Shown piece after piece: positions 16,365-48,896 of a stretch of DNA of 64,000 nt. The translations under genes and the position numbers were made by a program. A model generated the notes under the pieces. The model did not search any database and had not been told where the DNA came from. It was given only the letters and a program-made list of their open reading frames with translations. Each line of letters starts with the position of its first letter. Position 1 is the stretch's first letter. This DNA is from an uncultured virus (IMG/VR IMGVR_UViG_3300037044_000254) (Duplodnaviria; Heunggongvirae; Uroviricota; Caudoviricetes), in the IMG/VR virus record IMGVR_UViG_3300037044_000254, one strand, 5' to 3'.

Positions 16365-16366
16365 GG

Positions 16367-31536: not shown

Positions 31537-34500
31537 TGGTGGCTTGGGATTACACCGAAGATACCTTGGTGCAGCAGACCACGGCTGAGTACCTGAAAAG
31601 GCAGCTCGGCTGGGAGTCGGTCTATGCCTACAACACCGAGACCTTCGGTCCTACGGGCACGCTGGGCCGAGCGTCGGACCGGGAAGTGGTGCTCACCCGC
31701 TACCTGCGGAAGAAGCTCGTCCAGCTGAATCCAGAGCTGCCAGAGGACGCCTACGACGATGCGGTGCGGCAGATCGTAACGATCACCGCCACGCAGACAC
31801 CCTTCGCCACGAACCGTGAGAAGTACGCCATGGTCAAGGACGGCGTGCAGGTGACTTTCCGCAACGCGAAAGGGGAACGGGTCAAACAGCGACTGCGAGT
31901 GTTCGATTTCGAGACGCCGGAGAATAACCACTTCCTTTGTGTGCGCGAGCTGTGGGTGCGCGGGGAGCTCTACCGCCGCCGGGTGGACATCGTCGGGTTC
32001 GTCAACGGTTTGCCGCTGTTGTTCATGGAACTGAAGAACGTCAGCAAGGACATTCGCGCCGCTTACGAGAAAAACCTGGCCGACTACAAGGACACCGTCC
32101 CGCACCTATTCCACCACAACGCCTTTGTTGTATTGGCCAATGGCGTGGACGCCAAGTTGGGTTCTGTGTCCAGCCGGTTCGAGCACATCCACGAGTGGAA
32201 ACGCCTGGAGGAAGATGAACCGGGAGCGGTGGACATGGAAACACTGCTCAAGGGAGTCTGTGGGAAGCGCAACTTCTTAGATTTGCTGGAGAACTTCATT
32301 GTCTTCGACGATTCCTCCGGCGAATCTCGCAAAATCCTCGCCCGCAACCACCAATTCCTTGGCGTTAACCGCGCCATCGAGGCCTTGAAAGACCGGAGGA
32401 ACCGCCAGGGCAAGCTGGGCGTGTTTTGGCATACCCAGGGGGCGGGCAAGAGCTACTCGATGGTCATGTTCACCCGCAAGGTTCATCGCAAGCTTGGCGG
32501 TAACTTCACCTTTGTGATCCTCACTGATCGCAACGACCTGGACACCCAAATCTACAAAACCTACGCCGGCTGCGGCCTCGTGGACCACGACCGGGACCCG
32601 TGCCGGGCCGCCGACGGTGAGCACGTGGGTCAGCTTCTGGCGCAACACAAGTCCTACGTCTTCTCGCTGATCCAGAAGTTCAACCGGGACGTGAACCCGG
32701 ACGAGGGTTATACGCAGCGCGACGACATCATCGTCATTACTGACGAAGCGCATCGAACGCAGTACGGCACGTTGGCCCTGAACTTGCGCAACGCCCTGCC
32801 CAACGCCAGCTACATCGGCTTTACCGGTACGCCGTTGTTCACAGACGACGAGATCACCCGGCGGGTATTTGGGGATTACGTCTCCACCTATGACTTTCAG
32901 CGCGCCGTTGAAGACAAGGCCACCGTACCCTTATATTACGATGCCCGGGGCGACAAGCTCGGCGTGGCCGTGGTCGACCTGAACGAACGGATCGCTGCCA
33001 AGCTGGAGGAGTTGGAGACCCAGAACGTTGATGTCGAGCAACGTCTGGAGAAGGAACTCAAGCGCGACTATCACATCATCACTGCGGACAAGCGCCTGAA
33101 TCAGGTTGCTCGGGACTTTGTCAGGCATTATTCGACGGCCTGGGAGAGCGGCAAGGCCATGATAGTCTGCATCGACAAGATCACCTGCGTGCGGATGTAC
33201 CACCTGATCGCTAAGTACTGGGACAAACGCATCCGGGAATTAGAGGGGGAACTGGGCACGGCCGCTGATGAGCAGGAGGAGGTTTATCGCCGCCGGCAGA
33301 TCGACTGGATGCGTGAGACACGCACGGCGGTCGTGGTCAGCGAAGAGCAAGGCGAAGTCGAGAAGTTCCGCAAGTGGAATCTTGACATTACCCCGCACCG
33401 CAAGCTGATCAAGGAGGGAATGGATCTGCCGGAATCCATGCGTGTTAGGCCGCAATTCCGGAATATGCAACGCATGGACCTGGATGAGGCGTTCAAGGAG
33501 GAAGAGCACCCATTCCGGATCGCCATCGTCTGCGCCATGTGGCTTACCGGTTTCGACGTGCCCAGCCTATCCACGCTTTATTTGGACAAGCCGTTGAAGG
33601 CCCATACGCTCATGCAGGCAATCGCCCGGGCCAACCGGGTGAACGAGGGCAAGAATAACGGCCTCGTAGTCGACTATTGCGGCATTCTCAAAAATTTGCG
33701 AAGGGCCTTGGCCACGTTCGCGGGTCAGGCGGACGGCGGCCATGGCGGCGAGGGCAGCGAACAAGACCCGACAAAGCCCGAGGAAGAGCTGTTGGCCGAC
33801 ATGGAAGAGGCCATTGCCTTGGTCCGGGCATTCCTGACCGAGCGCGGAGCGTCACTTCAAGACATCATCAAGAAAACCGGATTCGAGCGCAATGCTGCCA
33901 TCTTGGTGGCTAAGGAAGCAGCCAACGAAAATGACGAGACGCGGAAGCGATTCGAGGTTATGTGCCGGGAGGTCTTCAAGAAGTTTAAGGCCTGCCTAAA
34001 CATCAAGGGAATCAACGAGCACCGAAAGGAATACGACGCGATAAACATAGTCTATAGGAGCCTTCAGCAGGACCGGGAGCAGGCTGACATCACCGACATT
34101 ATTCGCGGGCTTCACCAGGTGGTCGACGAAGCCATCGAGACGAAAACTATCGGCGAGTTGGAGGACAGGCCGCCCTTCGACATCAGCAAGATAGACTTCG
34201 AGCGGCTGAGGAAGGAATTCGAACGGAGCCCAGTCAAACGCAGCACAGCCCAGAATTTGAAACAGGCCATCGAACGGAGGCTCCAGCGACTCTTAGCCCA
34301 GAACCCCCTGCGCACGGACTTCCAGCGCCATTACGAGGAGATCGTATCCGACTACAACCGGGAGAAGGACCGTGTGACCATCGAACAGACCTTCGAGGCC
34401 TTACTCAAACTGGTGCAGGAATTAGACGAGGAAGAGAGCCGAGCAATGCGGGAAGGCCTGGATGAGGAGTCACTATCCTTATTCGACCTTTTGAAAAAGC

Positions 34501-34781
34501 CCGACTTAAGCGCACCAACCATCAAACGGATCAAAATGGTCGCTATTGAACTCCTTGCAACGCTCAAGGCTGAAAAGCTCAAGATCGACCATTGGCGCGA
34601 TAAGGAATCGACGCGCGACGCAGTGCGAATCGCGATTCGTGATTTCTTGTGGAACGAAGATACAGGGTTACCGGTAGATTCCTACACCGAGGACGAAGTG
34701 AGCGTCAAGTCGGAAGATGTTTTTAGGCATGTGTACCGGGCGTATCCGACCGTACAATCACCATATTATGCAGCTGCTTGA
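31536..34781 (+). CDS. hsdR: Type I R-M restriction subunit R
   Basis: DIVGFVNGLPLLFMELK, WHTQGAGKS, DEAHR, GFTGTP, MWLTGFD, QAIARANR. Confidence 0.95.
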   Translation: MVAWDYTEDTLVQQTTAEYLKRQLGWESVYAYNTETFGPTGTLGRASDREVVLTRYLRKKLVQLNPELPEDAYDDAVRQIVTITATQTPFATNREKYAMVKDGVQVTFRNAKGERVKQRLRVFDFETPENNHFLCVRELWVRGELYRRRVDIVGFVNGLPLLFMELKNVSKDIRAAYEKNLADYKDTVPHLFHHNAFVVLANGVDAKLGSVSSRFEHIHEWKRLEEDEPGAVDMETLLKGVCGKRNFLDLLENFIVFDDSSGESRKILARNHQFLGVNRAIEALKDRRNRQGKLGVFWHTQGAGKSYSMVMFTRKVHRKLGGNFTFVILTDRNDLDTQIYKTYAGCGLVDHDRDPCRAADGEHVGQLLAQHKSYVFSLIQKFNRDVNPDEGYTQRDDIIVITDEAHRTQYGTLALNLRNALPNASYIGFTGTPLFTDDEITRRVFGDYVSTYDFQRAVEDKATVPLYYDARGDKLGVAVVDLNERIAAKLEELETQNVDVEQRLEKELKRDYHIITADKRLNQVARDFVRHYSTAWESGKAMIVCIDKITCVRMYHLIAKYWDKRIRELEGELGTAADEQEEVYRRRQIDWMRETRTAVVVSEEQGEVEKFRKWNLDITPHRKLIKEGMDLPESMRVRPQFRNMQRMDLDEAFKEEEHPFRIAIVCAMWLTGFDVPSLSTLYLDKPLKAHTLMQAIARANRVNEGKNNGLVVDYCGILKNLRRALATFAGQADGGHGGEGSEQDPTKPEEELLADMEEAIALVRAFLTERGASLQDIIKKTGFERNAAILVAKEAANENDETRKRFEVMCREVFKKFKACLNIKGINEHRKEYDAINIVYRSLQQDREQADITDIIRGLHQVVDEAIETKTIGELEDRPPFDISKIDFERLRKEFERSPVKRSTAQNLKQAIERRLQRLLAQNPLRTDFQRHYEEIVSDYNREKDRVTIEQTFEALLKLVQELDEEESRAMREGLDEESLSLFDLLKKPDLSAPTIKRIKMVAIELLATLKAEKLKIDHWRDKESTRDAVRIAIRDFLWNEDTGLPVDSYTEDEVSVKSEDVFRHVYRAYPTVQSPYYAAA

Positions 34782-34946: not shown

Positions 34947-37925
34947 TTGGCGGTTCTAAGAAGAAAAGTAAATGGGAATTATATCATTCTGGGGCCAGAT
35001 TTCCCTGGCATGCCCTGTATCACAAGGCAGATCCAGCCAGAAGGCGTTGAATGGTTGAGACAAAAGGGAATCATACTGGGCAACCAAGTCCCCCGCGATC
35101 TTATACAGTTATTAGAAGATAATGGTTGGGTCTGGACATATGGCGAACCTTCGACTCTTTCATCTCCACCGGGTCCGGACGAACCAACTGATGATGAAAG
35201 AGAATTACTTTCATTCTTGGAACAATGGAGCCGGGATGGTGATCCAAGAGTGTTTGAACGTGAGCTTGGTAATCGAAGGAAAGTGGTATCTCTCCATAAA
35301 TGCTTTGACAAGGCCTTTCTAAGCTGGGTTGTGGCCATACAGGAGGCTATAACTCCGCTACAACTTTGCGATCTCACCCTTTATGAAATTCAGGAAAATT
35401 TTTTTAGAAGTAAAGTTGCACAATTTTCTAGATTACACCGGCAGCTTTGGGATAGGGAAAGGGGCAAATGGGTTATCTGTCATTGGTTGATCTGGATATC
35501 GGAAGTTTACCTATTGAGTAAGCAGGGTAAGCCTTGCCCGGATTTATGGCAAGGTAGAGTCCACGGAGTTATTTACCGTCTTCTTGCTGACCTCGATGAA
35601 ATCCAGGTTACCCCGCTATCTAATCTTTGGAAAAGGAACAAATCCTTTATTCGCTGGAACTTTAGGGAGGGTATGATTGAACTTGTCTTTCCAGAGCAAA
35701 AAGGTCCCGAAAATTGCAGAATAGAGTTTGATTTGAATGGAATTTTGCAGACCCTGAAGCTGGAAAAAGTTAAGGGGGCTTGTCGCTGGAAAGAAGAAGT
35801 CTTTCGGATTGATGAGCCTGAACCCCCCATATTCTGGGAATTTAGTTATTACCGTAATGAAGAACTATATGGGAAAATATTTTCCCGTTTTCCAGGATCG
35901 GGAATTTTGCTCTGGGATGAAACAGGCATATACCTGGAGCCAGAAACACAATCAGGAAAGCTGCTCAGCGAGAAGCATTATTACCTTCTTGCCCATAATG
36001 ATAGAAAAACAGAGATTGCCTCTCTGGGAATCATCTTAACCTCTGACAATGAGCTGCTCGAGCCGGTGGGATGGTGGGATTGGGTTGCCTTTCACATTTT
36101 TATCCCTGGAAGTGTTGAAAAACTCGGGCCATATCCTTTCCAACGGCCCGAGCTTCCCTTGTCTATTGAACTATCAACTCCGCCTCAACTCCCGGTGGAA
36201 TTCGCCCATCAGGTCCCGGTTTACTTGGGAGACTGGCCTCTTTGCAGATTTGACGATATGGTTGGAGCACTCTCAGCAAAATTGGTTATTGTTGGCGATG
36301 CCTGTATCCATACTCATCAGTTTCCGAGCCAAGAAGGTAGGTCTCTCAACCTCAATGCAATCGATGCGCTGAAGCACCATTTTGGGCTGGCTACCCTGGA
36401 ATTTTCGGCCCTTTCCCCCAAAGGCCGGGACCGACAGGAGATGCAGTTTATGCGACTCCCCGCCTGGGCCTTTAACATCATTGATGACCCAGGAGGCCGC
36501 AGCGTCAAGGCTCTATCAGTATCTGGAGTATTTGAGGGGAGCATGGCCTCTGGGGCTAACTGTGAAGTAATCCCTGGGGAACAGGGACACTTTGTAATCA
36601 CCGCACAGGACCCATGCCGAAACCCGGTAGTCACAGTGTCATGGCAGAACCGTCATGACCAAGGGAAAATTTCCTTTAGTGTTCGACTTCCGGTAAATCG
36701 AGGGACGATATTGCGTTATGGAGCTGAATTCCCCTCTTGGCAAGGCCTACCCTTAACCGCACCGTCTGATTTCCTTGCCTCCACCAGAGAAGGGGAGATC
36801 AGACTTGAACTGCTGCATCCCCATCCTCACCGTGAAGTTTGGGTAAAAGCTAGTGGGGAGGGGGCGGTTCAGTGTGGTCAGCTCTTGGGGCGAGTAGTGC
36901 GTCTTCCTTGCCATCGCATACGGGACTACTTAGGAACCAGATTTGCCACCCTGTTTGTTGAAACTGCAGGGGGGTGGGAACCTTTCTTGAACCAGGCCGA
37001 ACGGCCAGAACTACCGCCATCCCAGTCGTTTCCACCAGAAATAGATAAGTTTACAAAGGAATTATGGTGGGCGGATAGAGGAACCCTGCAAAACTATTGG
37101 GACGAGGCCCAGGTTAATTTCATAGAAAAGGCAGAGACCCATCCCATCCAAGACAGCCTCCTGGTCAAGACGATTTTTCTTGCGGCGCACCTGGGAGACT
37201 GGTTTGGGATAAAAGAATTCTTCGATGCAGTCCAGATCCCGGAAGCTGAAATCATTAAAATTCGACGCCACTTGCGAATAGATTTAAAGAAAGAGCAAGA
37301 TTTAAAAGAATCCAGACGATGGGTTGAGGCCTTGCCCCCTGACAGTTATAAAACTCATGCAGAAGGAGAGTGGTGGTATCGGTTTGCTCGTCAACGAAAT
37401 ACGATGGCGCCGGGGGCTCTCGCAACAAGTTACCATCGTTTAAGTGACAATATTTGGGGAGATCCGGTGAGCGCCGTGGAAGCCTTTTCCCTATCTTCCA
37501 TGTCTGCCTTGCTGGGAAGTGGAGAAATTCCATCGGCTTACCCTAACCTGCAAAGCCCCTATTATCAACTTTTTAGCAATATTTATAACTGGTTATCAAC
37601 GGAATTAAAAAAAATTGACCAACTTCTTCTCCCCCCTGAGATACCGTATCCCCTTGAGTACATCCTGGTACCGCAAGATATTCTGTTTTTGAGTACTTGT
37701 ATCGCTCAGATGCGTCGGGAAGTAGGACTGGCCGGGCAGTTGCTATCTCAGCTTGAGCATTTTTCTCAGCAGTTCCCGATATCCTTTCTATTGCTGAAGG
37801 CACGTCAATACCGTTTTTCTGGCTTTCGTGAACAAGCTGTCTCGGTTTATCGGGAATTGATGAATTTATCGGATATTCCTGATAGGATGCTGCAAGTCAT
37901 TCTTAATGAGACAAATTCCTGGTGA
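34947..37925 (+). CDS. Large hypothetical protein, first gene of helicase operon (possibly DruH/DruF-like accessory)
   Basis: 992 aa, TTG start; beta-rich middle and helical TPR-like C-terminus; no catalytic motif recognised. Confidence 0.6.
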   Translation: MAVLRRKVNGNYIILGPDFPGMPCITRQIQPEGVEWLRQKGIILGNQVPRDLIQLLEDNGWVWTYGEPSTLSSPPGPDEPTDDERELLSFLEQWSRDGDPRVFERELGNRRKVVSLHKCFDKAFLSWVVAIQEAITPLQLCDLTLYEIQENFFRSKVAQFSRLHRQLWDRERGKWVICHWLIWISEVYLLSKQGKPCPDLWQGRVHGVIYRLLADLDEIQVTPLSNLWKRNKSFIRWNFREGMIELVFPEQKGPENCRIEFDLNGILQTLKLEKVKGACRWKEEVFRIDEPEPPIFWEFSYYRNEELYGKIFSRFPGSGILLWDETGIYLEPETQSGKLLSEKHYYLLAHNDRKTEIASLGIILTSDNELLEPVGWWDWVAFHIFIPGSVEKLGPYPFQRPELPLSIELSTPPQLPVEFAHQVPVYLGDWPLCRFDDMVGALSAKLVIVGDACIHTHQFPSQEGRSLNLNAIDALKHHFGLATLEFSALSPKGRDRQEMQFMRLPAWAFNIIDDPGGRSVKALSVSGVFEGSMASGANCEVIPGEQGHFVITAQDPCRNPVVTVSWQNRHDQGKISFSVRLPVNRGTILRYGAEFPSWQGLPLTAPSDFLASTREGEIRLELLHPHPHREVWVKASGEGAVQCGQLLGRVVRLPCHRIRDYLGTRFATLFVETAGGWEPFLNQAERPELPPSQSFPPEIDKFTKELWWADRGTLQNYWDEAQVNFIEKAETHPIQDSLLVKTIFLAAHLGDWFGIKEFFDAVQIPEAEIIKIRRHLRIDLKKEQDLKESRRWVEALPPDSYKTHAEGEWWYRFARQRNTMAPGALATSYHRLSDNIWGDPVSAVEAFSLSSMSALLGSGEIPSAYPNLQSPYYQLFSNIYNWLSTELKKIDQLLLPPEIPYPLEYILVPQDILFLSTCIAQMRREVGLAGQLLSQLEHFSQQFPISFLLLKARQYRFSGFREQAVSVYRELMNLSDIPDRMLQVILNETNSW

Positions 37926-37958
37926 ACCAACCACAATGTTAAAAATAAGAAGGAATAG

Positions 37959-39374
37959 GTGATGATGTTCAAGAAAACCGATTTATTGGAGAGGCTCTCG
38001 GCCCTTGACAAGGATTCAAAGAAAAAAACTGTGCCTGAACTTGAGGAATTAAAAGAGACGATAACAGAAGTTGTAGAAAATGCGGCGAATTTTTCTAAAT
38101 TTCTTCAGTCATTGAGCAAAGAAAAATGGAATCCCAAGACCCTAGAAATTTTTTCTGAATGCATGGGCAGGCGCCTCTCCGAGGAAGGTGGCCAGGAAGG
38201 GAATGAAGAAACCCTTCTGGCCATTTTGCGGGCGAATTATCGAGGAGTGTGGCTCCCTGGGCTGGTAAAAAGCTTACTACGTTTGTTGCAAAGGGGGAAT
38301 GCTTACGCCTTGGATCTTTTGAAGGATATTTTGACCAAACCCCGCAAATCCAAGGAAAGCGACGCCTGGAGCTTCTACGAAAAGAACTTTGCCTCGATTC
38401 TCCAGCCCAATAACGGCCTTCCCTATCTCATGAGCCTTTCTCTAGAGTCATGGCCAGAAGAACCTTCAAAACAGATAAGATTAATTCTGAAGAAACTCAT
38501 GGAGAGATATGCCAATGAAAGATCACCGCTGTCCAATAAAGAATCCTTGGCAGCATTAGAGGCTTACTTAATACAACGTTGTGCCGATATGTCCCGACCT
38601 TGGAAGGAAATGGAATTTTCCATTCTAAAACTTGTGGCGAACCAAAACATTCCGGAATGGACAGAATACATCGCAAAGATTGTCGCGAAGCTGAAAGAAG
38701 CCCAAGAATCCAGAGCGATTAATTGGGCGGAGTTCATTATTAAGCAATTGGATAAGACTAAGACATGGAAGGATGAGCCAATAAAAGAGACCTCGAAATC
38801 CCCACAACCTGGAATGCCAGATGGTATAGCCTCGCTGGAAGATTTTGAGGAAAGGACCGTACATTTTTTTTCTGCGTTAGAAACAATTGTTCGCGAATAC
38901 AAAAATATGAAATTAAAATATCAGCAAAATCTTCAAGACATTGCCGATTTGCGAAAGCAAGCCGAAAATTTAGAAGATGATATCAAAAAGAAAAACCATA
39001 TAATTACAGAAAAGAATGACTTCATTAGAACTCTCCGCATAGAAAAATCACAAATATCTACAGAGATGCTAACTTTGCATAAATCAGTTGTTGAATATCA
39101 AACACAATTACGAGAAGAGATAGAGAGATCAGATGTAAGGATTCATCAGATTCAAATGGAGGCGAAAATGCAGCTTCGCCAGTTCAAGAACATGCTTTGG
39201 CAACGTATTAACCCTGATTTAGATGATCTCATCCATGGAACCTTGCAAGAGGATGATTATGCCTCACCGGAGCGAGGTCGTAGCCTTTATCGCCGTCTGC
39301 AAGACATTATCAGAAAGCTTAGAGATCTTGAGGTAATCCCTGGATCTGACAATTATCGGGGGGGTGAAAATTGA
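37959..39374 (+). CDS. Helical/coiled-coil protein
   Basis: 471 aa with long heptad region near the C-terminus; stop overlaps the Hsp70-like start. Confidence 0.7.
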   Translation: MMMFKKTDLLERLSALDKDSKKKTVPELEELKETITEVVENAANFSKFLQSLSKEKWNPKTLEIFSECMGRRLSEEGGQEGNEETLLAILRANYRGVWLPGLVKSLLRLLQRGNAYALDLLKDILTKPRKSKESDAWSFYEKNFASILQPNNGLPYLMSLSLESWPEEPSKQIRLILKKLMERYANERSPLSNKESLAALEAYLIQRCADMSRPWKEMEFSILKLVANQNIPEWTEYIAKIVAKLKEAQESRAINWAEFIIKQLDKTKTWKDEPIKETSKSPQPGMPDGIASLEDFEERTVHFFSALETIVREYKNMKLKYQQNLQDIADLRKQAENLEDDIKKKNHIITEKNDFIRTLRIEKSQISTEMLTLHKSVVEYQTQLREEIERSDVRIHQIQMEAKMQLRQFKNMLWQRINPDLDDLIHGTLQEDDYASPERGRSLYRRLQDIIRKLRDLEVIPGSDNYRGGEN

Positions 39375-40855
39375 GAAGCGCCATCGGCATTGATTTTGGG
39401 ACCACCAATACCCGCTTAGCTTTTTGCGATGGTATCCAAGTGCGCATCCTCACCGAACCCCAGGCAGTGTCACCCTTCATCCCCAGTACTATTGCATATA
39501 GACAAGGCAGACCCATTGCCTATGGTCAAGAGGCAAGAACAATCCACGGAGATGAGGCCATTGCTTCCCTGAAGTGGTTATTGGCTCAGGATGCTACCTT
39601 AGATGTGGGAATTCCGGACCGAGGAATAAGCCCAACAGAGGTGGTGGCCGACTTTGTTGGACATTTAAAGAGAATATTTCTGGCGAACCGGGTTGACCCA
39701 GAGGAGCATATGGTAGCGGTGACCGTGCCAGTCGGTTATCCGCTCCGGGCAAGGCGAGCGCTGGTTGCAGCTTTTCAAAAGGGAGGGGTGCCGATAAGCG
39801 TGCTGTATCCTGAACCGGTGGCAGCGCTTTATGCTGCTGCTCCCGCGACCACCAGAGAGGGTAAGGTTTGCGCCATACTGGACTGGGGGGGAGGGACCCT
39901 TGATATCGCCTGCCTGAGAATAAAGGAGGGAAAGGCCTACGTTTTGAGCACCGAAGGACTCAAGGAGGGGGGAGATGATTTTGATGCATGGATTGCCCGC
40001 GACGCTTTAGACGTTTTCCTTTCGCGTAATTTAGACCTGCAAAATGATCGAGATTTAATATGGAAGACCAAACAAAAGGGGTTGTTGCTAAGGGCTGAGA
40101 GTGCCAAGTGGGATTACAATTATAATCCCACCTTACGCTGGGATGGTTTTGTGGGCAACTATGATCTGGAATACCGGCTTGACGCCGATCTCTTCCGGGA
40201 GCGCCTGAAAAATCCGGTGAGCAAGGCCATCAGACTCTTTTCCCAAGCGGTTAAAGATAGTGGCGAACCTGAACGTTTAATAAAACCGATAATTCTCTCT
40301 GGTGGAACACGCAACCTGGACTTTGTCCGTCACAGTTTAGAAGGAGAATTTGGAGATCGGATTATAGATGAGCTTCCGAAAACCGGACATTTCAAGGATG
40401 TGGATAAAAATCGTATTGATTCGGCCACAGCGCTGGGCGCAGCGCTCCTTATGGCAAATGAGAGTCGCCCGGTATTCTCCCGGTCCATTGGGGTGCGGAT
40501 GGCCGACGCCCGCCATACGGCCGACATGGATCTGTTCTGGCCGATCTTCCACCGGGGTGAAATTATCCAGCCGCAGAAAACTAAGGAGGTTGAACTTTTT
40601 GTCACCAATCCCTCCTGTGGGGTGGCGCGCCTCTTGATTTGCGACCAACTTGAGCCGGATTTGGAACCTGCTGGTCGTCTCCTGCGGTTTTTCCCAGTGC
40701 CAGTGTCAAAAGAAGAAATAAGCATTTTTGCAAAATTTAGGGTCACTGAGGACCTACTCCTTGAGGTGACCGTAATCGGTGCGATCGCCGGCATCAACCC
40801 AGAAGATTCCCGATGCTATATTGCCAACTTGGCCTTTGGTTTTGATTTACCCTAA
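39371..40855 (+). CDS. Divergent Hsp70-family ATPase lacking the helical lid
   Basis: GIDFGTTNT, VTVP, EPVAA, LDWGGGTLD, GGDDFD, LSGG, ALGAA; short SBD-beta-like tail; 494 aa. Confidence 0.9.
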   Translation: MRSAIGIDFGTTNTRLAFCDGIQVRILTEPQAVSPFIPSTIAYRQGRPIAYGQEARTIHGDEAIASLKWLLAQDATLDVGIPDRGISPTEVVADFVGHLKRIFLANRVDPEEHMVAVTVPVGYPLRARRALVAAFQKGGVPISVLYPEPVAALYAAAPATTREGKVCAILDWGGGTLDIACLRIKEGKAYVLSTEGLKEGGDDFDAWIARDALDVFLSRNLDLQNDRDLIWKTKQKGLLLRAESAKWDYNYNPTLRWDGFVGNYDLEYRLDADLFRERLKNPVSKAIRLFSQAVKDSGEPERLIKPIILSGGTRNLDFVRHSLEGEFGDRIIDELPKTGHFKDVDKNRIDSATALGAALLMANESRPVFSRSIGVRMADARHTADMDLFWPIFHRGEIIQPQKTKEVELFVTNPSCGVARLLICDQLEPDLEPAGRLLRFFPVPVSKEEISIFAKFRVTEDLLLEVTVIGAIAGINPEDSRCYIANLAFGFDLP

Positions 40856-40873
40856 ATTCTTTAGAGGAAAGCC

Positions 40874-41440
40874 ATGCTATCTAATCTCACCGTGCGGTCC
40901 AATGTGATCGAGAACCGCCGCACTCCCCAAGACTATAGAATAAGAGGAGAACTGGTGGTATCTCCCCTGGCTAGAATTTCTGCCCGAGATCTACATGAAC
41001 TATCAACCCTGAACCCGATTGGTTTGGGCAATGTTTTCGATAAAGAAACATTGAAAACGAGGCCATACGGCTTGCCCACATCGGAACAGCTAACACAATA
41101 TAAAAGTTACCTTTTCTATGGTGATAAGACAGTTTCCCTTGTTGACGAGGGACGGTTAATCAAATGCTGGTGTGCAGCAGCAGAACATCTATTGCGAACG
41201 TGGGAAGAAATAAAATATCACTTAGATATAGAGAAAACTGTGGAATGTCTTTGTATTTTTATCGCAATAGAAATAAATCTTCAGGTTAAAGAAGCGCTTA
41301 ACAATGGTCTCTCCCCTGAAGAGTTAGAATTATTGTTTGAAATCAAAAAAGCCGTGGAAACTATGTTAGAAGAAGAGAAGGATTGGGAAACATTCCAAGT
41401 ATACCAACGCGCCAGCGAAATCTTGGGTTTAAGAGATTAA
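40874..41440 (+). CDS. Hypothetical protein
   Basis: 188 aa, GAGGA RBS, helical C-terminus. Confidence 0.65.
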   Translation: MLSNLTVRSNVIENRRTPQDYRIRGELVVSPLARISARDLHELSTLNPIGLGNVFDKETLKTRPYGLPTSEQLTQYKSYLFYGDKTVSLVDEGRLIKCWCAAAEHLLRTWEEIKYHLDIEKTVECLCIFIAIEINLQVKEALNNGLSPEELELLFEIKKAVETMLEEEKDWETFQVYQRASEILGLRD

Positions 41441-41454
41441 TCGGGAGGCGACTG

Positions 41455-44400
41455 ATGGCCATTGATCCCATCCAGATTTCACACAATATAAAGGGGCGTT
41501 TTCTCTCTTATCTTAAGACGACCTTTAAGGTGTCGGAGAGGTACACTGATCTCAATTCAAGGCTTAAAGATTTGCTGAGTAAGGAGCAACGTTTTTTCCG
41601 GGGGCCATATTTGCAGGGACTGCCTCCATACCAAACCGATCGGTCTCTTGAGGAATTGGTGCAGGAAGGGGTTCTGCCTCAGGAAATTCTGAAGACCCCC
41701 TTCTTTGACAACGTCCGGCGCCCCCTTTATCGTCACCAAGTGGATACCATTCGCCTGTTGCGCAAAGGAGAAAACGTTATCCTGGCAAGCGGTACCGGAA
41801 GCGGTAAGACCTTGGCGTTCCTAATCCCCATCCTGGCAGGCATCCTGGAAGACCCGCGACCGGGCATTCACGCCCTCTTACTTTACCCAATGAACGCGTT
41901 GGTGAACGATCAGTTGAAGTTACTCAGGCGCCTGTTAAAAGACTATCCGGAGATTCGCTTCGGCCGTTATATCAATAAAGAAGTGACCCCTGAAAGGGAG
42001 AGGGAGGCCAGGGACCTTCCCCAAAATCAAAATGCCCCCGCAAACGAAGTGCTCTCTCGTGAAGTCTTTCGGAAACATCCGCCACACCTGCTCATCACCA
42101 ATTATTCAATGTTGGAGTATCTGCTCCTCCGTCCCAAAGACTCACCCCTTTTTCAGGGTCCGTGGCGCTTCATGGTAGTGGACGAGGCCCATACCTACAC
42201 TGGAGCCAAGGGAAGCGAAGTTGCTCTGCTTTTGCGAAGGGTTCGGGACAGGATAAAGGCTCCCGGAGAAAAGCCTCCCCAATATGTAGCCACTAGCGCT
42301 ACCATGGGCGATGAACAACAAGAAAGCCTCAAGAGAATTACCGAGTTCGGGAGGCATTTCTTCGCCGCTCCTTTTTCAGAGAATAATGTAATAAGGGAGC
42401 TCACAACCCATGCTCCCTTGGGAAATCAAGAGTTAAAGGTGCCCAGGGAAGTTTATGGAGCGCCGATTGTGACCAGGGCGCTGGAGAGCCGCAACTGGTC
42501 GCCGGAATTATCTGCCCTCTTGGAGCAGGCCGGTTTTGCGGCGGCGGCGGTGCACCAGGCCGCGGCGCTTGCTGCGACGGACTTCCCCGGCGCTCTCTAT
42601 TCCGTCTTCTGCCATGACTCCCGAGTCCAGAGCTTGCGCGAAGAAGTGGAGTTGGTCCCGGACCTTCCCAGCGCTGCCGCCCATGTGTTTGGCAGCGAAG
42701 CCGCGGTGGATGATCTCATTCATATGGTAAGAATATTCAGCTTGGCTCGTATGCCGGGAACGGAGGCCCGGCTGGTACCCTGTCGCTACCACTTTTTTCT
42801 CAAAGGACTTAACGGGGTTCTGGTGAGCTTTTCGCCAGAGGGCGGGAGTGGGAGAAATCCAGACCCATATCCTTCTTTGGATCCGGCGATAACTGATCTA
42901 CAGACGGAAAGCAAAACCCTGCAACTATATTTTTGTCGCAAGTGCCGGCAACCCTATCTTTTCGGATATGCTTTAGAGAGAATTCTCAAGGCCCTGGGCT
43001 CTCCCATAGAGGAACGGGGCAAACCTCTCTTACTGGCTTGGGACCTTCCCCAAGAACGACTGCCTGAAGAAGATGCAGAGTTCTCTGAAACCACTGAAAG
43101 CGACCTTCCCAGGATAGAATGGTGTGTGAATTGTGGATGTTATTGGGATCAGGGAGGGAATTCTTGCGATTGCCCTGAAGCGCATAGAATGCTTCTGTGG
43201 AAATTGTCCGAAGGCCAGGAGGATCTCCCAAAATGCAAGGTGTGTGGCGGCCAACACAGCGTGACCCCGATGGTATCGGAAGCTGAAGCAGCCCAGGCAG
43301 TAACGACCCAGGCTATCTATGATTGTTTGCCTCCTTCAACAGAGGAAAAAGCCTCATATTATCCAGGTCGAGGCCGCAAGCTACTCATCTTTTCGGATTC
43401 ACGCCAAAAGGCTGCCCGGTTTGCGCCATATCTAGAGATGACAAGAACCCCCTTGGCTATTCGTTGGCTCATCTTGCAGGCTCTAAAGGAGGCCGGGGGG
43501 TATGAGCGAGGCATCACAGCCTCATCTCTTTTGGATTATATGTTGCGCCTAGCTGAGGAAACCGGCCTTTTTCTCCAAAATGACCGTGATGAGTTGGTCA
43601 CGGAATTTAAAAGAAATCTGGCGCAGGAATTTTGTTTGCCTGTAAGTCGCCGGAGTTCCCTGGAGTCTTATGCCTTGGTGCAAGTATCCTGCGAGTTGGG
43701 CAGGTTCTTTAAGCTGCCCGAGGTCTTTACGAGCTATGGATTGGCCGAGAAAGAGGCATTAAGTTTATTTCAGTTCTTTCTTCAGACCATGCGCTTGCAG
43801 AAGGCAGTCACCTTTCCCAGCCCTCTAACTGCCGCTGATCCAGCATTTGCCCCTATCCTAAAAAAGATCGCATTCTTGGATCAGGAATCTGAACAAGGCG
43901 TTGGCTTTACCTCACATGCCTTCGTACCTGCGTCAAGCCATGTGGACCGTCAGCGGCGATCAGTTTTTCTTAAAAAGGTGATAGAACGGAAATGTGGCCG
44001 AAGCCTGAACCAGGCAGAAACCCTAGACCTCTTAAGTGCTTGTTGGCGAGCCCTCTCTGCTGTGGAAGCCCCCTTCCCACCTCTGAAAAGGGTAGAGGTA
44101 GCCCATGGAAGAATGGGATTTCAGATCCCTTGGGAAAATCTCAGATTTGGTTTAAGCGGGGAATGGCATCAATGCCGAAGCTGTGGACAATGGACCGACA
44201 AAGCAGTGGCGGAAATCTGCCCCCACCTGGGCTGTAAAGGAATCCTGCAAAGGAAAATCCCCTCTGACTTTTTCAGGGACCACTACTATTGGGATATTTA
44301 TTCCAACTCCAAACCGCCAACCCCTTTCACCGCTAGGGAACATACGGCCCAGTTAAGCGCTGCTCTTGCTTCGGCATATCAAATTGCTTTCGAGAAGGGT

Positions 44401-47238
44401 TGGCAGCCCGACCATGGTCAAATCAACATTCTCAGTTGCTCTACCACCTTTGAATTAGGAGTGGACCTGGGAGACCTAGAAGCGGTGTTATTGAGGGACG
44501 TGCCGCCTACGCCGGCTAATTACCAGCAGCGCGCTGGACGGGCCGGGCGGGGTGTGGGGACTGCCGCCTTTGTCACCACTTTTGCTTTATCCAGGTCCCA
44601 TGACGAACACTACTACTCTTGCCCTGAGGAAATGGTTAGGGGCCGCATCAAGCCCCCCCGACTCAATCTCGAAAACGCTTTAATTGTGGACCGTCATATC
44701 AATGCCGTCATGCTCTCTCGCCTTGTACGCCAAATAAGCCAGACCATCCATGAAGTTGTGAGCATCGATAGTTTTTGGAGGGGTTGTGACAGCTGGTTGG
44801 AACAAAGCGGACTGGAAGGATTATACCATCTCTATCAGGAGGCCAAGCGGGAGATAGCTGCTTTGATTCCAGACTCCTTCCCACAAGATTATGGCGACAA
44901 TAGCCCCGCCCGTCTTCAAAATTCACTTGAGGCAGCCAGAGATTATTACCTTGCCGAGCTAAGCATGTATAAAAAAGCTCAAAAGGAGGCAAAATTAGTA
45001 AGAGATCAAATGGAGAAGGAAGGGAGATCAACCATTAATATAGCCCGTTACATGGATTATCTCCGCCGGCGGATGAACGACATCAAGGCGACCGATTGGA
45101 TCAGCTTCTTGTGTGCCAGGGTGGTTTTGCCCGGCTATGCGTTTCCAATCTATAATGTGATTTTAGAAACTACTGATAAAGACTTAAAATTGGAGCGGGA
45201 TCTCAAAATCGCTTTATCGGAGTATGCACCCGGCAGTGAAATTGTAGCCAAAGGACTAGTTTGGAAGAGTGAAGGGTTGCGTCTCCCCCCTAATAGAGCA
45301 TTGCCCCAAAAATATTATGCCCGTTGCCCGAATTGTGGCCACGTAGAAAGGCATCTGGAGCACACACAGATTTTTAGAGGCGGAAGTTGCAGGGTATGCG
45401 GCGATGCTGGCCGGGGACCTCGGCCCAGACGAAAAGCTCTCTATTGGATTCCTCTCTATGGGTTTTTAACAGACCCGCAGAAAGGCGGTAGAAAAATCGA
45501 TTTCACCCGCGGCATGTCAATGCTCCCGTCTTCCAGGGTGTTTTATGTGGCGCAACAAGAGGACAATCCTGATAAATCGTTGGAACTTTCTTCCACGCAG
45601 CAGGTTTGGGTTTCCGTAAAAACCAACAAGTCCGCAGATTTTTTTGTCTTTAATCCCGGCAAAAACGGGCAGGGATTCACCCTCTGCAGATCTTGCGGAA
45701 GACTTCTGAGTGATAGGGATGTTAGACAGGGACACGATAAATTCTGGGGTGGTAGGTGCCAGGGAAGGGCTTCTCAGCCGGTTCGGTTGGCCCACGAATT
45801 TCAGACCAGTGTCTGTCGGCTTCTTTTTCATCACACGGAAAGAAGTTTTGTAGATAACGGTTTTTGGTTGTCTCTCTTATACGCCGTGCTATCAGGCATG
45901 GCTGCGGCTTTGGGAATTGAGGAGTCAGACATTGACGGCGTCGTCAGTCCGGCTTCAATAGGCGCAGGAATCCCCGTTCAGGAACTCGTCATCTTCGACA
46001 ATGTGCCGGGAGGAGCGGGACACATTGAATCCTTTGCCAGAGAAGAGGATCTGCGGACCGTTATCCACGCAGCTCACCGTTTGGTATCCCAGTGCGGTTG
46101 TGCCCCGGATACCGCCTGTTATGGCTGTCTGCGGCGGTACCAAAACCAATACTGTCATGACATTCTGGCTCGCGGGCCGGTAGCAGCATATTTGGAGCGC
46201 CTTTTGGAGGATATTGAAACCGCCCAGAGCGATGATCGCACCTACTATTCCCCGGATAAGGCTCGGTTTTTAAGGTCGCAACTTGAGCAATCAAAGGGGT
46301 TGACGATTATCGCCGATACCCTGTTGGAAAGTGCTCCCGGTGAGATTGGTTCGTGGTTTCTTGCCCTACAAAATCTGGCCGATCGCCTGGGAGAAAATTT
46401 CACCCTATGTCTGAAAACCTTTGACTCAGCGACAGAAGGCCACCTAACTGCCTGCCTAATACTTTTGCTCCATAGCGGCGCCCGATTGTATCGGGTGGCC
46501 GCCCAGGCTCCGGCGCCCCCCTATCATTTCTTCTCCGCTGCCCCAAATGCACCGCAAATGGGCATTAAATGGGTTGACCAAGATTTGCCCGTATTGGACG
46601 GCACCATCCACTCAAAGAAGTTTGTTTACAACACCTTTCCAGACCGGCTACGAGAAGCAGAAGAGGAATTGAGGGTGTGGCTCAAGAAACACGCTACCCC
46701 TGTTGCCATCGCCAATTTGCAGATGAGAGGTGTCTCGGCTGTATCTATTGGTAAAAACGATTTGGTTGACTACGAGAGCATTTGTCGAGACTTCCGGAAA
46801 CCAGGGTATGAAAAGATTATCATCCAGGACCCCTATCTCCAAAACCAGCACCAGCTGGATTGTTTGCAGCGCTTTCTATCAGCGGGGTTATCATTGGAAG
46901 GGCGTCTGGATGCGGCATCCTTTCTACTCCGCACTCGCTTAGCGCAGCCATCGACTGATCGGTTCGCCTTTAGTCCCTTGGAACACCGAAAGAAACTGGA
47001 GCATTTCTTGAGTAATCTGCCTGATTTTCAGAAAGATCTGGACTTACGGAGCACCTACGATAAGATGCACACTCGTTTCGCCTATTTTTCCTGGAATGAC
47101 GGTGTTGAGTTGCTTTACCTTCCAGAACGTGGTTTCGATATCTTAAAACCAGGAACCGAAAGAGCCCGAGCAGATACCGTTATCCTGAAATTTGTGGAAA
47201 TTGACCCCAAAATGAGAAATATTTTGAACTTATTTTAA
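41455..47238 (+). CDS. DEAD/DEAH SF2 helicase with DUF1998 and C-terminal MIT_C/PLD-like domain (DruE-like)
   Basis: Start ATG 41455 (GGGAGG); LYRHQ, GTGSGKT, YPMNALVNDQ, DEAH, SAT, FSDSR, ELGVDLG, QRAGRAGR, CGC...ACYGCL, QDPYL..HQ. Confidence 0.9.
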   Translation: MAIDPIQISHNIKGRFLSYLKTTFKVSERYTDLNSRLKDLLSKEQRFFRGPYLQGLPPYQTDRSLEELVQEGVLPQEILKTPFFDNVRRPLYRHQVDTIRLLRKGENVILASGTGSGKTLAFLIPILAGILEDPRPGIHALLLYPMNALVNDQLKLLRRLLKDYPEIRFGRYINKEVTPEREREARDLPQNQNAPANEVLSREVFRKHPPHLLITNYSMLEYLLLRPKDSPLFQGPWRFMVVDEAHTYTGAKGSEVALLLRRVRDRIKAPGEKPPQYVATSATMGDEQQESLKRITEFGRHFFAAPFSENNVIRELTTHAPLGNQELKVPREVYGAPIVTRALESRNWSPELSALLEQAGFAAAAVHQAAALAATDFPGALYSVFCHDSRVQSLREEVELVPDLPSAAAHVFGSEAAVDDLIHMVRIFSLARMPGTEARLVPCRYHFFLKGLNGVLVSFSPEGGSGRNPDPYPSLDPAITDLQTESKTLQLYFCRKCRQPYLFGYALERILKALGSPIEERGKPLLLAWDLPQERLPEEDAEFSETTESDLPRIEWCVNCGCYWDQGGNSCDCPEAHRMLLWKLSEGQEDLPKCKVCGGQHSVTPMVSEAEAAQAVTTQAIYDCLPPSTEEKASYYPGRGRKLLIFSDSRQKAARFAPYLEMTRTPLAIRWLILQALKEAGGYERGITASSLLDYMLRLAEETGLFLQNDRDELVTEFKRNLAQEFCLPVSRRSSLESYALVQVSCELGRFFKLPEVFTSYGLAEKEALSLFQFFLQTMRLQKAVTFPSPLTAADPAFAPILKKIAFLDQESEQGVGFTSHAFVPASSHVDRQRRSVFLKKVIERKCGRSLNQAETLDLLSACWRALSAVEAPFPPLKRVEVAHGRMGFQIPWENLRFGLSGEWHQCRSCGQWTDKAVAEICPHLGCKGILQRKIPSDFFRDHYYWDIYSNSKPPTPFTAREHTAQLSAALASAYQIAFEKGWQPDHGQINILSCSTTFELGVDLGDLEAVLLRDVPPTPANYQQRAGRAGRGVGTAAFVTTFALSRSHDEHYYSCPEEMVRGRIKPPRLNLENALIVDRHINAVMLSRLVRQISQTIHEVVSIDSFWRGCDSWLEQSGLEGLYHLYQEAKREIAALIPDSFPQDYGDNSPARLQNSLEAARDYYLAELSMYKKAQKEAKLVRDQMEKEGRSTINIARYMDYLRRRMNDIKATDWISFLCARVVLPGYAFPIYNVILETTDKDLKLERDLKIALSEYAPGSEIVAKGLVWKSEGLRLPPNRALPQKYYARCPNCGHVERHLEHTQIFRGGSCRVCGDAGRGPRPRRKALYWIPLYGFLTDPQKGGRKIDFTRGMSMLPSSRVFYVAQQEDNPDKSLELSSTQQVWVSVKTNKSADFFVFNPGKNGQGFTLCRSCGRLLSDRDVRQGHDKFWGGRCQGRASQPVRLAHEFQTSVCRLLFHHTERSFVDNGFWLSLLYAVLSGMAAALGIEESDIDGVVSPASIGAGIPVQELVIFDNVPGGAGHIESFAREEDLRTVIHAAHRLVSQCGCAPDTACYGCLRRYQNQYCHDILARGPVAAYLERLLEDIETAQSDDRTYYSPDKARFLRSQLEQSKGLTIIADTLLESAPGEIGSWFLALQNLADRLGENFTLCLKTFDSATEGHLTACLILLLHSGARLYRVAAQAPAPPYHFFSAAPNAPQMGIKWVDQDLPVLDGTIHSKKFVYNTFPDRLREAEEELRVWLKKHATPVAIANLQMRGVSAVSIGKNDLVDYESICRDFRKPGYEKIIIQDPYLQNQHQLDCLQRFLSAGLSLEGRLDAASFLLRTRLAQPSTDRFAFSPLEHRKKLEHFLSNLPDFQKDLDLRSTYDKMHTRFAYFSWNDGVELLYLPERGFDILKPGTERARADTVILKFVEIDPKMRNILNLF

Positions 47239-47732: not shown

Positions 47733-48896
47733 TTAGAAAATAAGACGATCATTGTATGGCAGAGCCGGTTGAGGATAGTTCGGATCCGTCTTCTCATGCA
47801 GAATGTCAGATTGACGTTGGGCAAATTTATCCCCAAGTTTCTTCCAGGTATCGGGAGGAAGTTCAGCTGCTTGACAGAAATATCGAACTGTTAGCTCAGC
47901 ACGCTTAAGGATTAAAAGTTCGGATTTGCCTGTAAGTTGAAGAAACGATCTATTATGTATCAAGTCCAGCGCTGCAAGTCGCAAAATTTGAGGAACTTGA
48001 AATGATATCTTGGGAGCCTCAAGGGACTCACGCACAAGCTGGAGAAAAGAATCCCATTGAGGCAAAGCAAGGGGAGTCTCTTCTCCTTTAGATTGTCCCT
48101 TTGCGATTAAAAGATCTGAACGGAGCTTAGAAATAAATTGATATTGGCTCCTCCCCCCCCAAATCACTACTTTAAGGGCCTCATCGAGTCTTGCTTTAGT
48201 CTCTGGCATTAGGTATTGAGTAAATATAAGGCCCACACATGTTGCGAGCGCAATACTAAAAACACTTACGCCTTCAAGAATAATAGCTAAGTGATCACTT
48301 CTTTCCGGGTCTATTTCTCTGCGAATGGCTTTAGCTTGTCCTAAGATCTTGCGAAGTATCTCCCAATGAGATGGTTCGTTCCATGCTTTTGCATATATAT
48401 AATAAACAAATGTCCCTAAGGGAGGGAATCGCTTAATTAAATCCCTTATATCAATTAATTCTTTAGCCGTGTAAATGCATTGTGCTGATCCTGAGGGATA
48501 TACCAATGCTCGGTCATATCTATTAAATTCTACTTCGTCCAGCAGGTTAATCCCTAGAGAACCTGCAAAGAGCTTATGGTCTGGTTCAATTTTATTTCCC
48601 TTTTTCCTTTGTAAAAGAATAATGCCAGAACTGGCCGATATCCTGTCCATTAATCCCCGAAGCCAAACAGCCCTATTTGCAGGTGATTGACCCTTGAGAG
48701 TTTTACAATCCCCGAGAACCAGCTCCCATCGAAGATCTGAGCCAGGACGTAGGCCAAGAACATCGATATCTGTAATAACTTTATTTTCCTCGTCGAGGCC
48801 ACCAGCAGGAAAAACTGGAATTTCGACGAGAGCATACCAACCTTGAGCGGTAAAATGCTTAAATATCATTTCTTTCTGAGCAGCATCCTTCATCAT
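47733..48896 (-). CDS. Putative PD-(D/E)xK restriction-endonuclease-fold protein
   Basis: N-terminal E...TDIDVLG...GDCKT motif, then helical domain. Confidence 0.65.
   Translation of the reverse strand: MMKDAAQKEMIFKHFTAQGWYALVEIPVFPAGGLDEENKVITDIDVLGLRPGSDLRWELVLGDCKTLKGQSPANRAVWLRGLMDRISASSGIILLQRKKGNKIEPDHKLFAGSLGINLLDEVEFNRYDRALVYPSGSAQCIYTAKELIDIRDLIKRFPPLGTFVYYIYAKAWNEPSHWEILRKILGQAKAIRREIDPERSDHLAIILEGVSVFSIALATCVGLIFTQYLMPETKARLDEALKVVIWGGRSQYQFISKLRSDLLIAKGQSKGEETPLALPQWDSFLQLVRESLEAPKISFQVPQILRLAALDLIHNRSFLQLTGKSELLILKRAELTVRYFCQAAELPPDTWKKLGDKFAQRQSDILHEKTDPNYPQPALPYNDRLIF

Follow-up and report, generated by a model that had tools for sequence, protein, structure and literature searches.

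The stretch of DNA analysed here, a window of 64,000 nucleotides from an uncultured virus of the Caudoviricetes (IMG/VR record IMGVR_UViG_3300037044_000254), carries at positions 34947-47238 an operon of five plus-strand open reading frames (ORFs) which we consider likely to form a single conserved system of the Druantia family, directed against phages (mobile elements). In this system, a dedicated Hsp70 module would replace the usual partners of the helicase DruE and would act as a switch that controls the helicase via a peptide. A preliminary description of the window had already pointed to a Druantia-like operon with an Hsp70-like ATPase. Beyond that description, our analysis identified a fixed pair of a coiled-coil and an Hsp70-like protein (genes 2 and 3), the portability of this pair between different helicases, and a conserved peptide at the start of the next gene.

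The five genes (Table 1) are separated by intergenic gaps of 33, -4, 18 and 14 nt, the stop codon of gene 2 overlapping the start of gene 3 by 4 nt, and agree exactly with the co-oriented gene set described previously when gene 5 is counted from the ATG at 41455. The mechanical ORF of gene 5 (41383-47238) opens with a TTG at 41383; the true start is the ATG, 14 nt past the stop of gene 4, because a GGGAGG Shine-Dalgarno sequence lies just upstream of it and because relatives align from residue ~21-25 of the long ORF. The position of the operon directly after hsdR, the end of which is 165 nt away from gene 1, and a GC content (0.46-0.52) below that of the phage-like flanks (0.57-0.62) were likewise found as described.

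Related loci, 160 in number, were collected from genomes and metagenomes by searching with an alignment of the Hsp70 clade; one of them (L081) is the window itself, and three are duplicates (L143 of L040, L121 of L029 and L153 of L046). Within a close clade, defined by at least 33% identity to gene 3 and comprising 16 non-self loci, a DruE gene is located directly downstream in all 11 informative loci, the five further loci being cut, so that the co-occurrence of Hsp70 and helicase extends beyond the window. A metagenome-assembled genome (MAG) of the Syntrophobacteraceae (L001) carries all five genes in the same order, with identities to the window of 35% for gene 1, 33% for gene 2, 56% for the Hsp70-like protein, 42% for gene 4 and 58% for DruE, and the order gene 1-Hsp70-DruE is kept in L003, L004, L006 and L009. 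Accordingly, the arrangement is not due to chance. Relatives of gene 1 are found upstream in these five loci and also in L005, L007, L082, L085 and L088. As labelled, the hosts of the close clade are Desulfobacterota, Planctomycetota (with Singulisphaera sp. Ch08 as a complete genome), Latescibacterota and a Firmicutes MAG, in addition to metagenome contigs; one 4.7-kb contig was binned as a Thermoplasmata archaeon, an assignment that is to be treated with caution. The same five-gene layout occurs in a more distant subgroup (L040, L052, L061, L071 and L126), the DruE proteins of which are shorter (~1610-1650 residues) and do not have the C-terminal ~310 residues. In two of these loci, L040 and L061, DruE is followed by a separate NERD-UvrD gene (RTasNERD-Hel, 7e-75 and 1e-78), as if it were to replace the missing C-terminal domain of DruE. 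A scan of viral contigs yielded 30 loci, none of which belongs to the close clade (best identity 26-35%).

Gene 5 encodes a superfamily 2 (SF2) helicase of the YprA/MrfA family and of the DruE type. Its top PADLOC model is DruE1 (2.9e-167, 557 bits), followed by DruE3 (6e-153), and Pfam recognises DEAD (8.3e-24), MZB/DUF1998 (5.4e-12) and Helicase_C (2e-08) domains in its 1927 residues, in good agreement with the DUF1998 helicase of about 1930 residues and the Druantia-like character given in the preliminary description. The best relatives in the PDB are 9tu7_Y, a 2108-residue helicase (9.8e-70), and MrfA/YprA (6znp, 3.1e-24). Among the relatives of gene 5, conservation extends to Walker A, DEAH, motif VI and the four MZB cysteines. 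The DruE3 model covers the C-terminal part (982-1926), the alignment to DruE1 being confined to 920-1615. The last ~310 residues are conserved within the close clade, and an H-x-R-[FY] motif is conserved in the C-terminal region, which perhaps forms a PLD-like domain with nuclease activity.

The Hsp70-like ATPase noticed earlier in gene 3 was readily recovered by Pfam (HSP70, 5.6e-23). A profile of its family (45 sequences) matched DnaK in the PDB (6.5e-58), with alignments that reach profile position ~480 and extend through the beta substrate-binding domain (SBD). In the AlphaFold2 (AF2) model (pLDDT 90.5, pTM 0.88), an actin-fold nucleotide-binding domain (NBD, residues 1-362) is followed by an all-beta domain (368-494), after which the chain ends. 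The top Foldseek matches were DnaK structures spanning NBD and SBDbeta (E 4e-35, TM 0.73-0.76), with 7kru_B, a lid-truncated DnaK with substrate peptide, at TM 0.76 and a root mean square deviation of 4.7, and also 5obu, a DnaK without SBDalpha. Residues D8, G10-T12, K68, E148, D171, G173-G175 and S310-G312 are invariant across the 45 sequences; by a presumed equivalence to DnaK numbering, we take them to be the phosphate-1, catalytic Lys/Glu, phosphate-2 and adenosine motifs. Gene 3 thus encodes a member of the Hsp70 superfamily which has retained NBD, beta SBD and ATPase motifs and is devoid of the alpha-helical lid. Fold and ATPase residues are shared with canonical DnaK and HscA, to which the identity is ~20-23%; the missing lid and the private partners, encoded beside it in a mobile defence island, are not. 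A housekeeping DnaK or HscA is not indicated by the sequence, because gene 3 scores far below the respective NCBIfam cut-offs (79 bits at a cut-off of 822 for DnaK, 101 bits at 709 for HscA). Among the Hsp70-like ORFs of at least 430 residues, 125 of 137 contain the beta domain. At the extreme C-terminus of gene 3, F491 and P494 are nearly invariant across the clade, and one might speculate that this tail could dock onto the TPR-like domain of gene 1. As a separate observation, the Hsp70-like protein of L013 weakly matches the PADLOC candidate PDC-M61B (4.9e-06), which gene 3 does not match; therefore, at least one Hsp70-like candidate family is already present in PADLOC.

Gene 2 consists of a variable N-terminal and a conserved C-terminal, coiled-coil half. 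It was assigned to no Pfam family and gave weak matches of the coiled-coil type only in Pfam, NCBIfam and PADLOC (in PADLOC at E of at least 0.13) and nothing usable in PHROG, and HEAT-like leads from the Atlas over residues 7-285 stayed below threshold (TM below 0.5, scores below 0.9). An iterated profile of gene 2 matched 116 of the 2400 ORF segments in the 160 loci, with a coverage that falls in the C-terminal half, and every one of the 116 is located immediately upstream of an Hsp70-like gene. With no match at any other position in these loci, the coiled-coil protein and Hsp70 are a fixed pair.

For gene 4, PADLOC, Pfam, NCBIfam and PHROG returned no family match, and the Atlas model (pLDDT 0.39) no usable one. 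Its N-terminus carries an instance of the motif S-N-h-x-h-x-S-N-h (h, hydrophobic), which was scored within the first 60 residues. Of the 99 ORFs that come immediately after an Hsp70-like gene, 69 bear the strict motif, which starts mostly at residues 3-9; in the controls, it was absent from all 363 other genes in these loci and occurred in 2 of 1980 shuffles and at ~0.005 per 60-residue window elsewhere. A relaxed pattern, which was set after near-misses had been seen, occurs in 76 of 94 downstream ORFs and in none of the 363 other genes. In both DruE subgroups, subgroup B included, the motif heads small proteins of the gene 4 type, and in other contexts proteins of ~95 residues, while in sister systems linked to DrmA it forms the N-terminus of a UvrD-like helicase itself. 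This fusion argues that the Hsp70 module and the helicase machinery are functionally linked. The motif is exposed at the N-terminus and alternates in hydrophobicity, as do the peptide ligands that Hsp70 beta domains bind, and we propose that the N-terminal peptide of gene 4 is a putative docking or client peptide of the Hsp70-like protein. A complex prediction for genes 3 and 4 was returned with 'weak support' (ipSAE 0.47; single runs 0.47, 0.48 and 0.45; best of three controls 0.00), with a partner pLDDT of 61-69 (mark at least 60), runs that share at least 33% of contacts, and no interface reported. Among 157 solved complexes and 215 mismatched pairs, the mark lets through 116 of the former and 2 of the latter; since ipSAE values up to 0.60 account for only 18 of these complexes but for both passing mismatches, and a pass in this range is more often wrong unless the contact was likely beforehand, the prediction is not counted as evidence here.

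Gene 1 is proposed to act as a sensor or scaffold, by analogy with the large partner of DruE in type III Druantia. Its AF2 model (pLDDT 83.1, pTM 0.62) is composed of a small alpha/beta domain, a helical domain, ~450 residues of tandem beta-sandwich (Ig/MG-like) domains and a TPR-like solenoid. Foldseek returned Ig-array and MG-domain proteins only (best E 1.8e-5). VIA returned TPR proteins over residues 694-992, among them peptide-binding receptors and the TPRs of Hsp70/Hsp90 co-chaperones, at Z values up to 11.7 that indicate the fold class only. No enzymatic fold was recognised by Foldseek and VIA over the whole length, in which the N-terminal 230 residues were not searched on their own. 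There was no match in Pfam, PADLOC, NCBIfam or PHROG and no sequence relative in the PDB, and none of 28 family members matched any PADLOC model at E up to 1. The family is small and dedicated: an exhaustive HMMER search yielded 49 representatives out of 1.84 billion at E up to 0.001, mostly of ~1000 residues; a word-indexed homologue search gave just two relatives of gene 1 and three of gene 2.

The pair of coiled-coil and Hsp70-like protein is portable between helicase types. Downstream of the Hsp70-like gene, a DruE-type helicase is found in 20 of the 160 loci, a pair of UvrD-like and 'DEAD' helicases in 58 and another context in 36, the remaining 46 being too short. In the sister system, the 'DEAD' helicase belongs to the DrmA type (9.6e-232 in L013, 2.4e-241 in L020) and is preceded by a GajB-like UvrD helicase, resulting in a four-gene system (coiled-coil protein, Hsp70-like protein, motif-bearing GajB-like UvrD helicase, DrmA-type helicase) in L013, L020 and 56 further loci. 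This DrmA-linked system is common among gut and rumen Firmicutes and Actinobacteria, and a gene 1-like protein is located upstream of it at L020, L047, L066 and L125. The earlier mention of DISARM thus fits better than expected, as the same Hsp70 module also adjoins DrmA-type helicases. In L053, an ARMADA-like array consists of a DrmD/BrxHII-like helicase, a PglX/IIG-like methylase (two ORFs) and a YprA/DruE-like helicase, and the insertion ahead of the YprA helicase comprises a coiled-coil protein, an Hsp70-like protein and a protein of 388 residues. Finally, there are helicase-free quartets (L025, L030, L044, L069, L078 and L079) with a protein of ~320-420 residues without Pfam family, a coiled-coil and an Hsp70-like protein; four of the six (L025, L030, L044 and L069) include a ~95-residue protein starting with the motif or a near-variant, and no co-oriented small gene was found at the quartets of L078 and L079 (Pseudanabaena). 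In a FastTree phylogeny of 100 Hsp70-like proteins (midpoint-rooted, no outgroup, 46 cut loci and three duplicates dropped beforehand), the DruE-linked proteins fall into at least three separate clades. The DruE label changes four times on this tree, at least three of these changes being forced by supported branches, compared to a mean of 15.1 in shuffled labels.

As far as PADLOC and Pfam tell, the gene set appears to lie outside Druantia types I, II and III; PADLOC assigned gene 5 (DruE) only and did not match the full set to a named system, which is in line with the novelty claimed in the preliminary description. Druantia type II, as described by Doron and colleagues in 2018, reportedly combines the DruM methyltransferase, DruF and DruG with DruE, and neither a methyltransferase nor DruF or DruG was matched by genes 1-4 (PADLOC, Pfam). 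With regard to type III, the gene 1 family matches no model in PADLOC, which presumably includes DruH models, and four partner genes are present instead of DruH (YjiT-family, ~1100 residues) alone. DISARM, which comprises DrmA and DrmB (DUF1998) together with DrmC or a methylase, is not indicated either, DrmA models matching gene 5 at 4.9e-13 only, far below DruE (PADLOC), without a methylase inside the operon.

The operon nevertheless resembles type III, published systems being described here and below from the available passages of the cited works. In both, DruE is last and is preceded by a large (~1000-1100 residues), fast-evolving, Ig/Fn3-rich partner without recognisable catalytic domain, and the DruE3 model aligns with the C-terminal part of gene 5; the coiled-coil, Hsp70-like and small peptide-bearing genes are extra in the operon. 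According to preprints of 2026, type III-A DruE has two C-terminal PLD-like domains and type III-B DruE has none, DruH is proposed to be a sensor or scaffold, and type III DruE is a 3'-to-5' helicase on DNA that contains single-stranded DNA (ssDNA). The sensor DruH evolves faster than DruE (10.64898/2026.05.12.724681), a pattern repeated here by the identities of gene 1 and DruE between window and L001. The main texts of the 2026 preprints on type III Druantia do not mention Hsp70 or chaperones, and the host partners reported in one of them for Escherichia coli DruE (SerA, RcdB, H-NS and StpA) include no chaperone. A link to DnaJ through the 'J-like' domains of DruH was considered and rejected, as these are folds of the phage baseplate J family (10.64898/2026.05.12.724681). 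In a Ralstonia solanacearum megaplasmid (CP023017.1, L191), DruE (DruE1, 2.4e-175) is preceded by a 1142-residue ORF that is mostly unannotated in the record and matches no PADLOC family, DruH included. It represents another unclassified DruE pairing; it is unrelated to gene 1 by hhalign (0.3%), which is not a test for DruH.

Hsp70-like proteins have been described in other prokaryotic defence systems. The CnuD protein of type III CoCoNuTs is likewise an Hsp70-like NBD/SBD protein encoded in a defence operon and equipped with helical-repeat regions of the HEAT type and coiled-coil regions, but its partners are the McrB-like GTPase CnuB and CnuC (DUF2357), as opposed to the YprA-family helicase here; with no Pfam match to McrB/AAA+ or DUF2357 among the five genes, only the Hsp70-like component is common to both. 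CoCoNuTs often adjoin type I restriction-modification (R-M) systems and Druantia III (PMC11090510). Kaur et al. 2020 (PMC7159879) described GTPase/tubulin/HSP70 conflict systems with TRAFAC GTPases and tubulin as well as GrpE and DnaJ domains, and both that work and the discussion of a later preprint (10.64898/2026.10.19.760177) put forward the concept that an HSP70-like NTPase can be the switch by which a sensor controls its effector in the immunity of prokaryotes. The idea of an Hsp70-family NTPase switch is the same, but GTPase, tubulin, GrpE and J-domain are missing here, and the effector would be DruE. Apart from the CoCoNuT work, the full-text literature searched contains no published description that joins Hsp70 with DruE, DUF1998 or DrmA, although preprint supplements, which this search does not cover, may list such operons under another label.

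In the reading we favour, the Hsp70 module would stand in for DruA-D, DruM/F/G or DruH as partners of DruE. By analogy with type III, DruE would be the effector, which loads on invader DNA, unwinds it and perhaps cuts it, and gene 1 would be a fast-evolving sensor or scaffold analogous to DruH. Genes 2 and 3 would form an ATP-driven switch, and gene 4 would serve as an adaptor with an N-terminal peptide held by Hsp70, most likely in the beta SBD; upon infection, this peptide would be captured or released at the expense of ATP, by which DruE is licensed. GrpE is a coiled coil and exchange factors of the HspBP1/Fes1 type are built from helical repeats, and solely on this basis gene 2 may be regarded as a dedicated nucleotide-exchange or regulatory partner of gene 3. 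A wider version, which we put forward as a tentative and rather doubtful possibility, holds that the lid-less Hsp70 and the coiled-coil protein form a portable chaperone-switch with a hard-wired client peptide, which would be carried at the N-terminus by the adaptor or helicase encoded next and be bound in the SBD; the switch would receive the infection cue via the Ig/TPR protein and, through the ATPase cycle of Hsp70, release or activate YprA helicases of the DruE, DrmA-like and ARMADA-like types.

Several points weigh against this reading. While gene identities, folds, conserved motifs, synteny, the exchange between helicase types and the setting in a defence island are observed, a function in defence, the parts played by genes 1, 2 and 4, the contact between peptide and Hsp70 and the direction of regulation are inferred. 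Scans for promoters and terminators of the operon were no better than shuffles. With respect to a nuclease activity, the C-terminus of gene 5 matches Pfam MIT_C (PLD-like) at E 0.001 and 19.5 bits, under the cut-off of 25, and MITD1 in the PDB at E 0.28. The signature of PLD proteins is H-x-K, from which the H-x-R of gene 5 departs. The association between motif and beta domain (74 of 88 with the domain versus two of six without; Fisher p 0.012) is weak, as the loci are related and only six do not have the domain, and no result maps the peptide to the beta domain. Furthermore, neither a J-domain (DnaJ) nor a GrpE-like partner was recognised in the operon by Pfam or NCBIfam. The last two points would also fit a system of the same composition in which the Hsp70-like protein is an RNA- or ssDNA-binding or targeting subunit and the motif serves another contact, with the coiled-coil protein or DruE. 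This possibility is strengthened by the authors of the CoCoNuT study, who argue that the Hsp70-like CnuD binds RNA, not protein clients (PMC11090510). However, the case of CnuD, which we compared by description only, rests on Walker-A-like motifs described as degenerate, whereas phosphate-1, phosphate-2, K68 and E148 of gene 3 are invariant; together with the widely retained beta domain and the resemblance of the motif to the ligands of such domains, this makes the nucleic-acid-binding role unlikely.

It is quite unlikely that the operon is a highly diverged Druantia type I, or 'Type IV CoCoNuT' as named by Bell et al. 2025 (10.1101/2025.09.15.676423), with genes 1-4 corresponding to DruA-D drifted beyond detection by sequence. 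Type I also consists of five genes, DruA-B-C-D-E, with DruE last (PMC7251935), it contains one coiled-coil partner, and DruE1 is the top PADLOC model of gene 5. In addition, Bell et al. presented a census of YprA proteins, emphasised an unappreciated diversity of Druantia and reported a coiled-coil, inactivated McrB-like CnuB in types I and II. Gene 2 itself matches DruC1 at E 0.74 (PADLOC), and five of ten members of its family do so with a best E of 4.2e-4. However, equal numbers match JetC, LmuB, ZorA and PbeC, so that the similarity most probably reflects coiled-coil composition. Genes 1, 3 and 4 match no PADLOC model even at E up to 10, and DruA/DUF4338 (Pfam), DruB and DruD (PADLOC) are not matched by genes 1-4, a comparison based on models and not on authentic DruA-D folds. 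The gene 1 family has no PADLOC match, the C-terminus of gene 5 follows DruE3 rather than DruE1, and the literature passages searched do not assign any Hsp70-like ATPase to type I, 'Hsp70' being absent from the main text and legends of Bell et al. 2025. A plasmid search for authentic type I Druantia gave type III-like and ARMADA-like loci instead. Alternatively, two independent neighbours might be present, an Hsp70-centred system of genes 1-4 and a solitary DruE acting alone or with host factors. The set of coiled-coil, Hsp70-like and small protein does occur without adjacent helicase among the 'other' contexts, as in the quartets, and defence genes cluster, by which adjacency in itself is a weak argument. 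We nevertheless consider two systems very unlikely in view of DruE immediately downstream in all informative loci of the close clade, gaps of 14-18 nt with a Shine-Dalgarno sequence, the fusion of the Hsp70-linked peptide to the helicase in the sister systems, and the insertion of the module inside the ARMADA-like operon directly before the YprA helicase. Least probable of all, and hardly to be expected, is a role outside defence, with gene 5 as a helicase of DNA repair or replication restart (MrfA/YprA-like) that has a private chaperone, or with a function for the phage-like element that carries it. YprA/MrfA helicases do include repair enzymes (10.1101/2025.09.15.676423), with MrfA among the PDB relatives of gene 5, and the operon lies in an island between phage modules. 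A defence context elsewhere was recovered in part: at five of 11 related DruE-linked loci, the operon is flanked by defence genes recognised by PADLOC (type I R-M S subunits, a PD-T4-6/mad6-like kinase, PDC-S68, IetAS and DrmD), and at the other six such neighbours are absent, which again speaks against defence. On the other side, gene 5 reaches 557 bits with DruE (PADLOC) and 134 bits with NCBIfam DECH_helic, at a cut-off of 874; its direct neighbours in the window are type I R-M, a GmrSD-like gene and RosmerTA; the distribution across phyla is patchy, the GC content low, and the partner proteins are fast-evolving.

The Druantia-family reading would make the operon an apparently undescribed variant. 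Druantia belongs to the most widespread systems of phage defence, and how it works is just beginning to emerge, for the two-gene type III. In preprints of 2026, DruE is viewed as a common core, with subtype-specific partners setting how it is switched on. The operon would then provide a partner set of a new kind, an Hsp70-family ATPase with apparently intact catalytic residues and a possible built-in client peptide. Being located beside DrmA-like and ARMADA-like helicases as well, the Hsp70/coiled-coil/peptide module would bear on the control of several YprA-helicase systems, for which it seems to be an accessory of general use in defence. This would extend the biology of Hsp70 from general folding to dedicated immune signalling in prokaryotes. 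The wider version, if true, would provide the first client-specific Hsp70 to gate an effector of immunity, and with it one layer of regulation common to Druantia, DISARM-like and ARMADA-like systems.

Table 1. Features of the operon, its surroundings in the window and the related loci (positions refer to the sequence named in the first column; aa, amino acids)
Sequence	Feature	Position	Strand	Length and basis
Window	Gene 1	34947-37925	+	992 aa, ORF
Window	Gene 1, small alpha/beta domain	residues 1-64		AF2 model
Window	Gene 1, helical domain	residues 82-214		AF2 model
Window	Gene 1, tandem beta-sandwich (Ig/MG-like) domains	residues 234-683		AF2 model
Window	Gene 1, TPR-like solenoid	residues 697-990		AF2 model
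Window	Gene 2	37959-39374	+	471 aa, ORF
Window	Gene 3	39371-40855	+	494 aa, Hsp70-like ATPase
Window	Gene 3, extreme C-terminus	40841-40852		F491 and P494
Window	Gene 4	40874-41440	+	188 aa, ORF
Window	Gene 4, N-terminal peptide (residues 3-12)	40880-40909	+	instance of S-N-h-x-h-x-S-N-h
Window	Gene 5 (DruE)	41455-47238	+	1927 aa, counted from the ATG
Window	Low-GC island	25974-52183		~26 kb
Window	hsdM, hsdS	in island		type I R-M
Window	GmrSD_N/Schlafen AlbA_2 gene	29281-31536	+	751 aa; GmrSD_N 1.5e-30, AlbA_2 8.4e-17, PADLOC HEC-05 1.1e-34
Window	hsdR	31536-34781		PADLOC REase_I 4.2e-167
Window	Gene without match	47733-48896	-	387 aa, ORF
Window	Gene without match	48893-50179	-	428 aa, ORF
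Window	RosmerTA-like pair	50343-52183	-	RmrA (helix-turn-helix and M78 peptidase) 8.9e-129; weak RmrT 3.5e-07
Window	Left phage module	1-25426	-	portal 2.2e-110, head protease/major head, adaptor, tail genes
Window	Right phage module	52477-64000	-	SbcC-like ATPase, exonuclease, Gp3-like, sliding clamp, ParB
L013	Sister four-gene system	8619-17127
L013	Hsp70-like protein	9977-11425		PDC-M61B 4.9e-06
L020	Sister four-gene system	3608-13896
L040	NERD-UvrD gene	10932-12581		RTasNERD-Hel
L061	NERD-UvrD gene	16768-18426		RTasNERD-Hel
L053	ARMADA-like array	41-17201
L025, L030, L044, L069, L078, L079	Helicase-free quartets	around 7700-11900
L191	DruE with preceding 1142-aa ORF	5564-14895		Ralstonia solanacearum megaplasmid

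In the window, the operon is part of a low-GC island that lies between two phage modules. No terminase was recognised beside the portal gene, where the island begins, and no tRNA gene in the window; the element may be a prophage or a phage-plasmid with defence cargo. Within the island, the GmrSD_N gene forms part of the type I R-M operon, where it is enclosed by hsdS and hsdR and where stop and start codons overlap. Two minus-strand genes of 387 and 428 residues, which overlap each other, are situated between DruE and the RosmerTA-like pair in the part of the island with the lowest GC content (0.39-0.43). Neither gave a match in Pfam, PADLOC, NCBIfam or PHROG, and the two may represent a further two-gene defence candidate.

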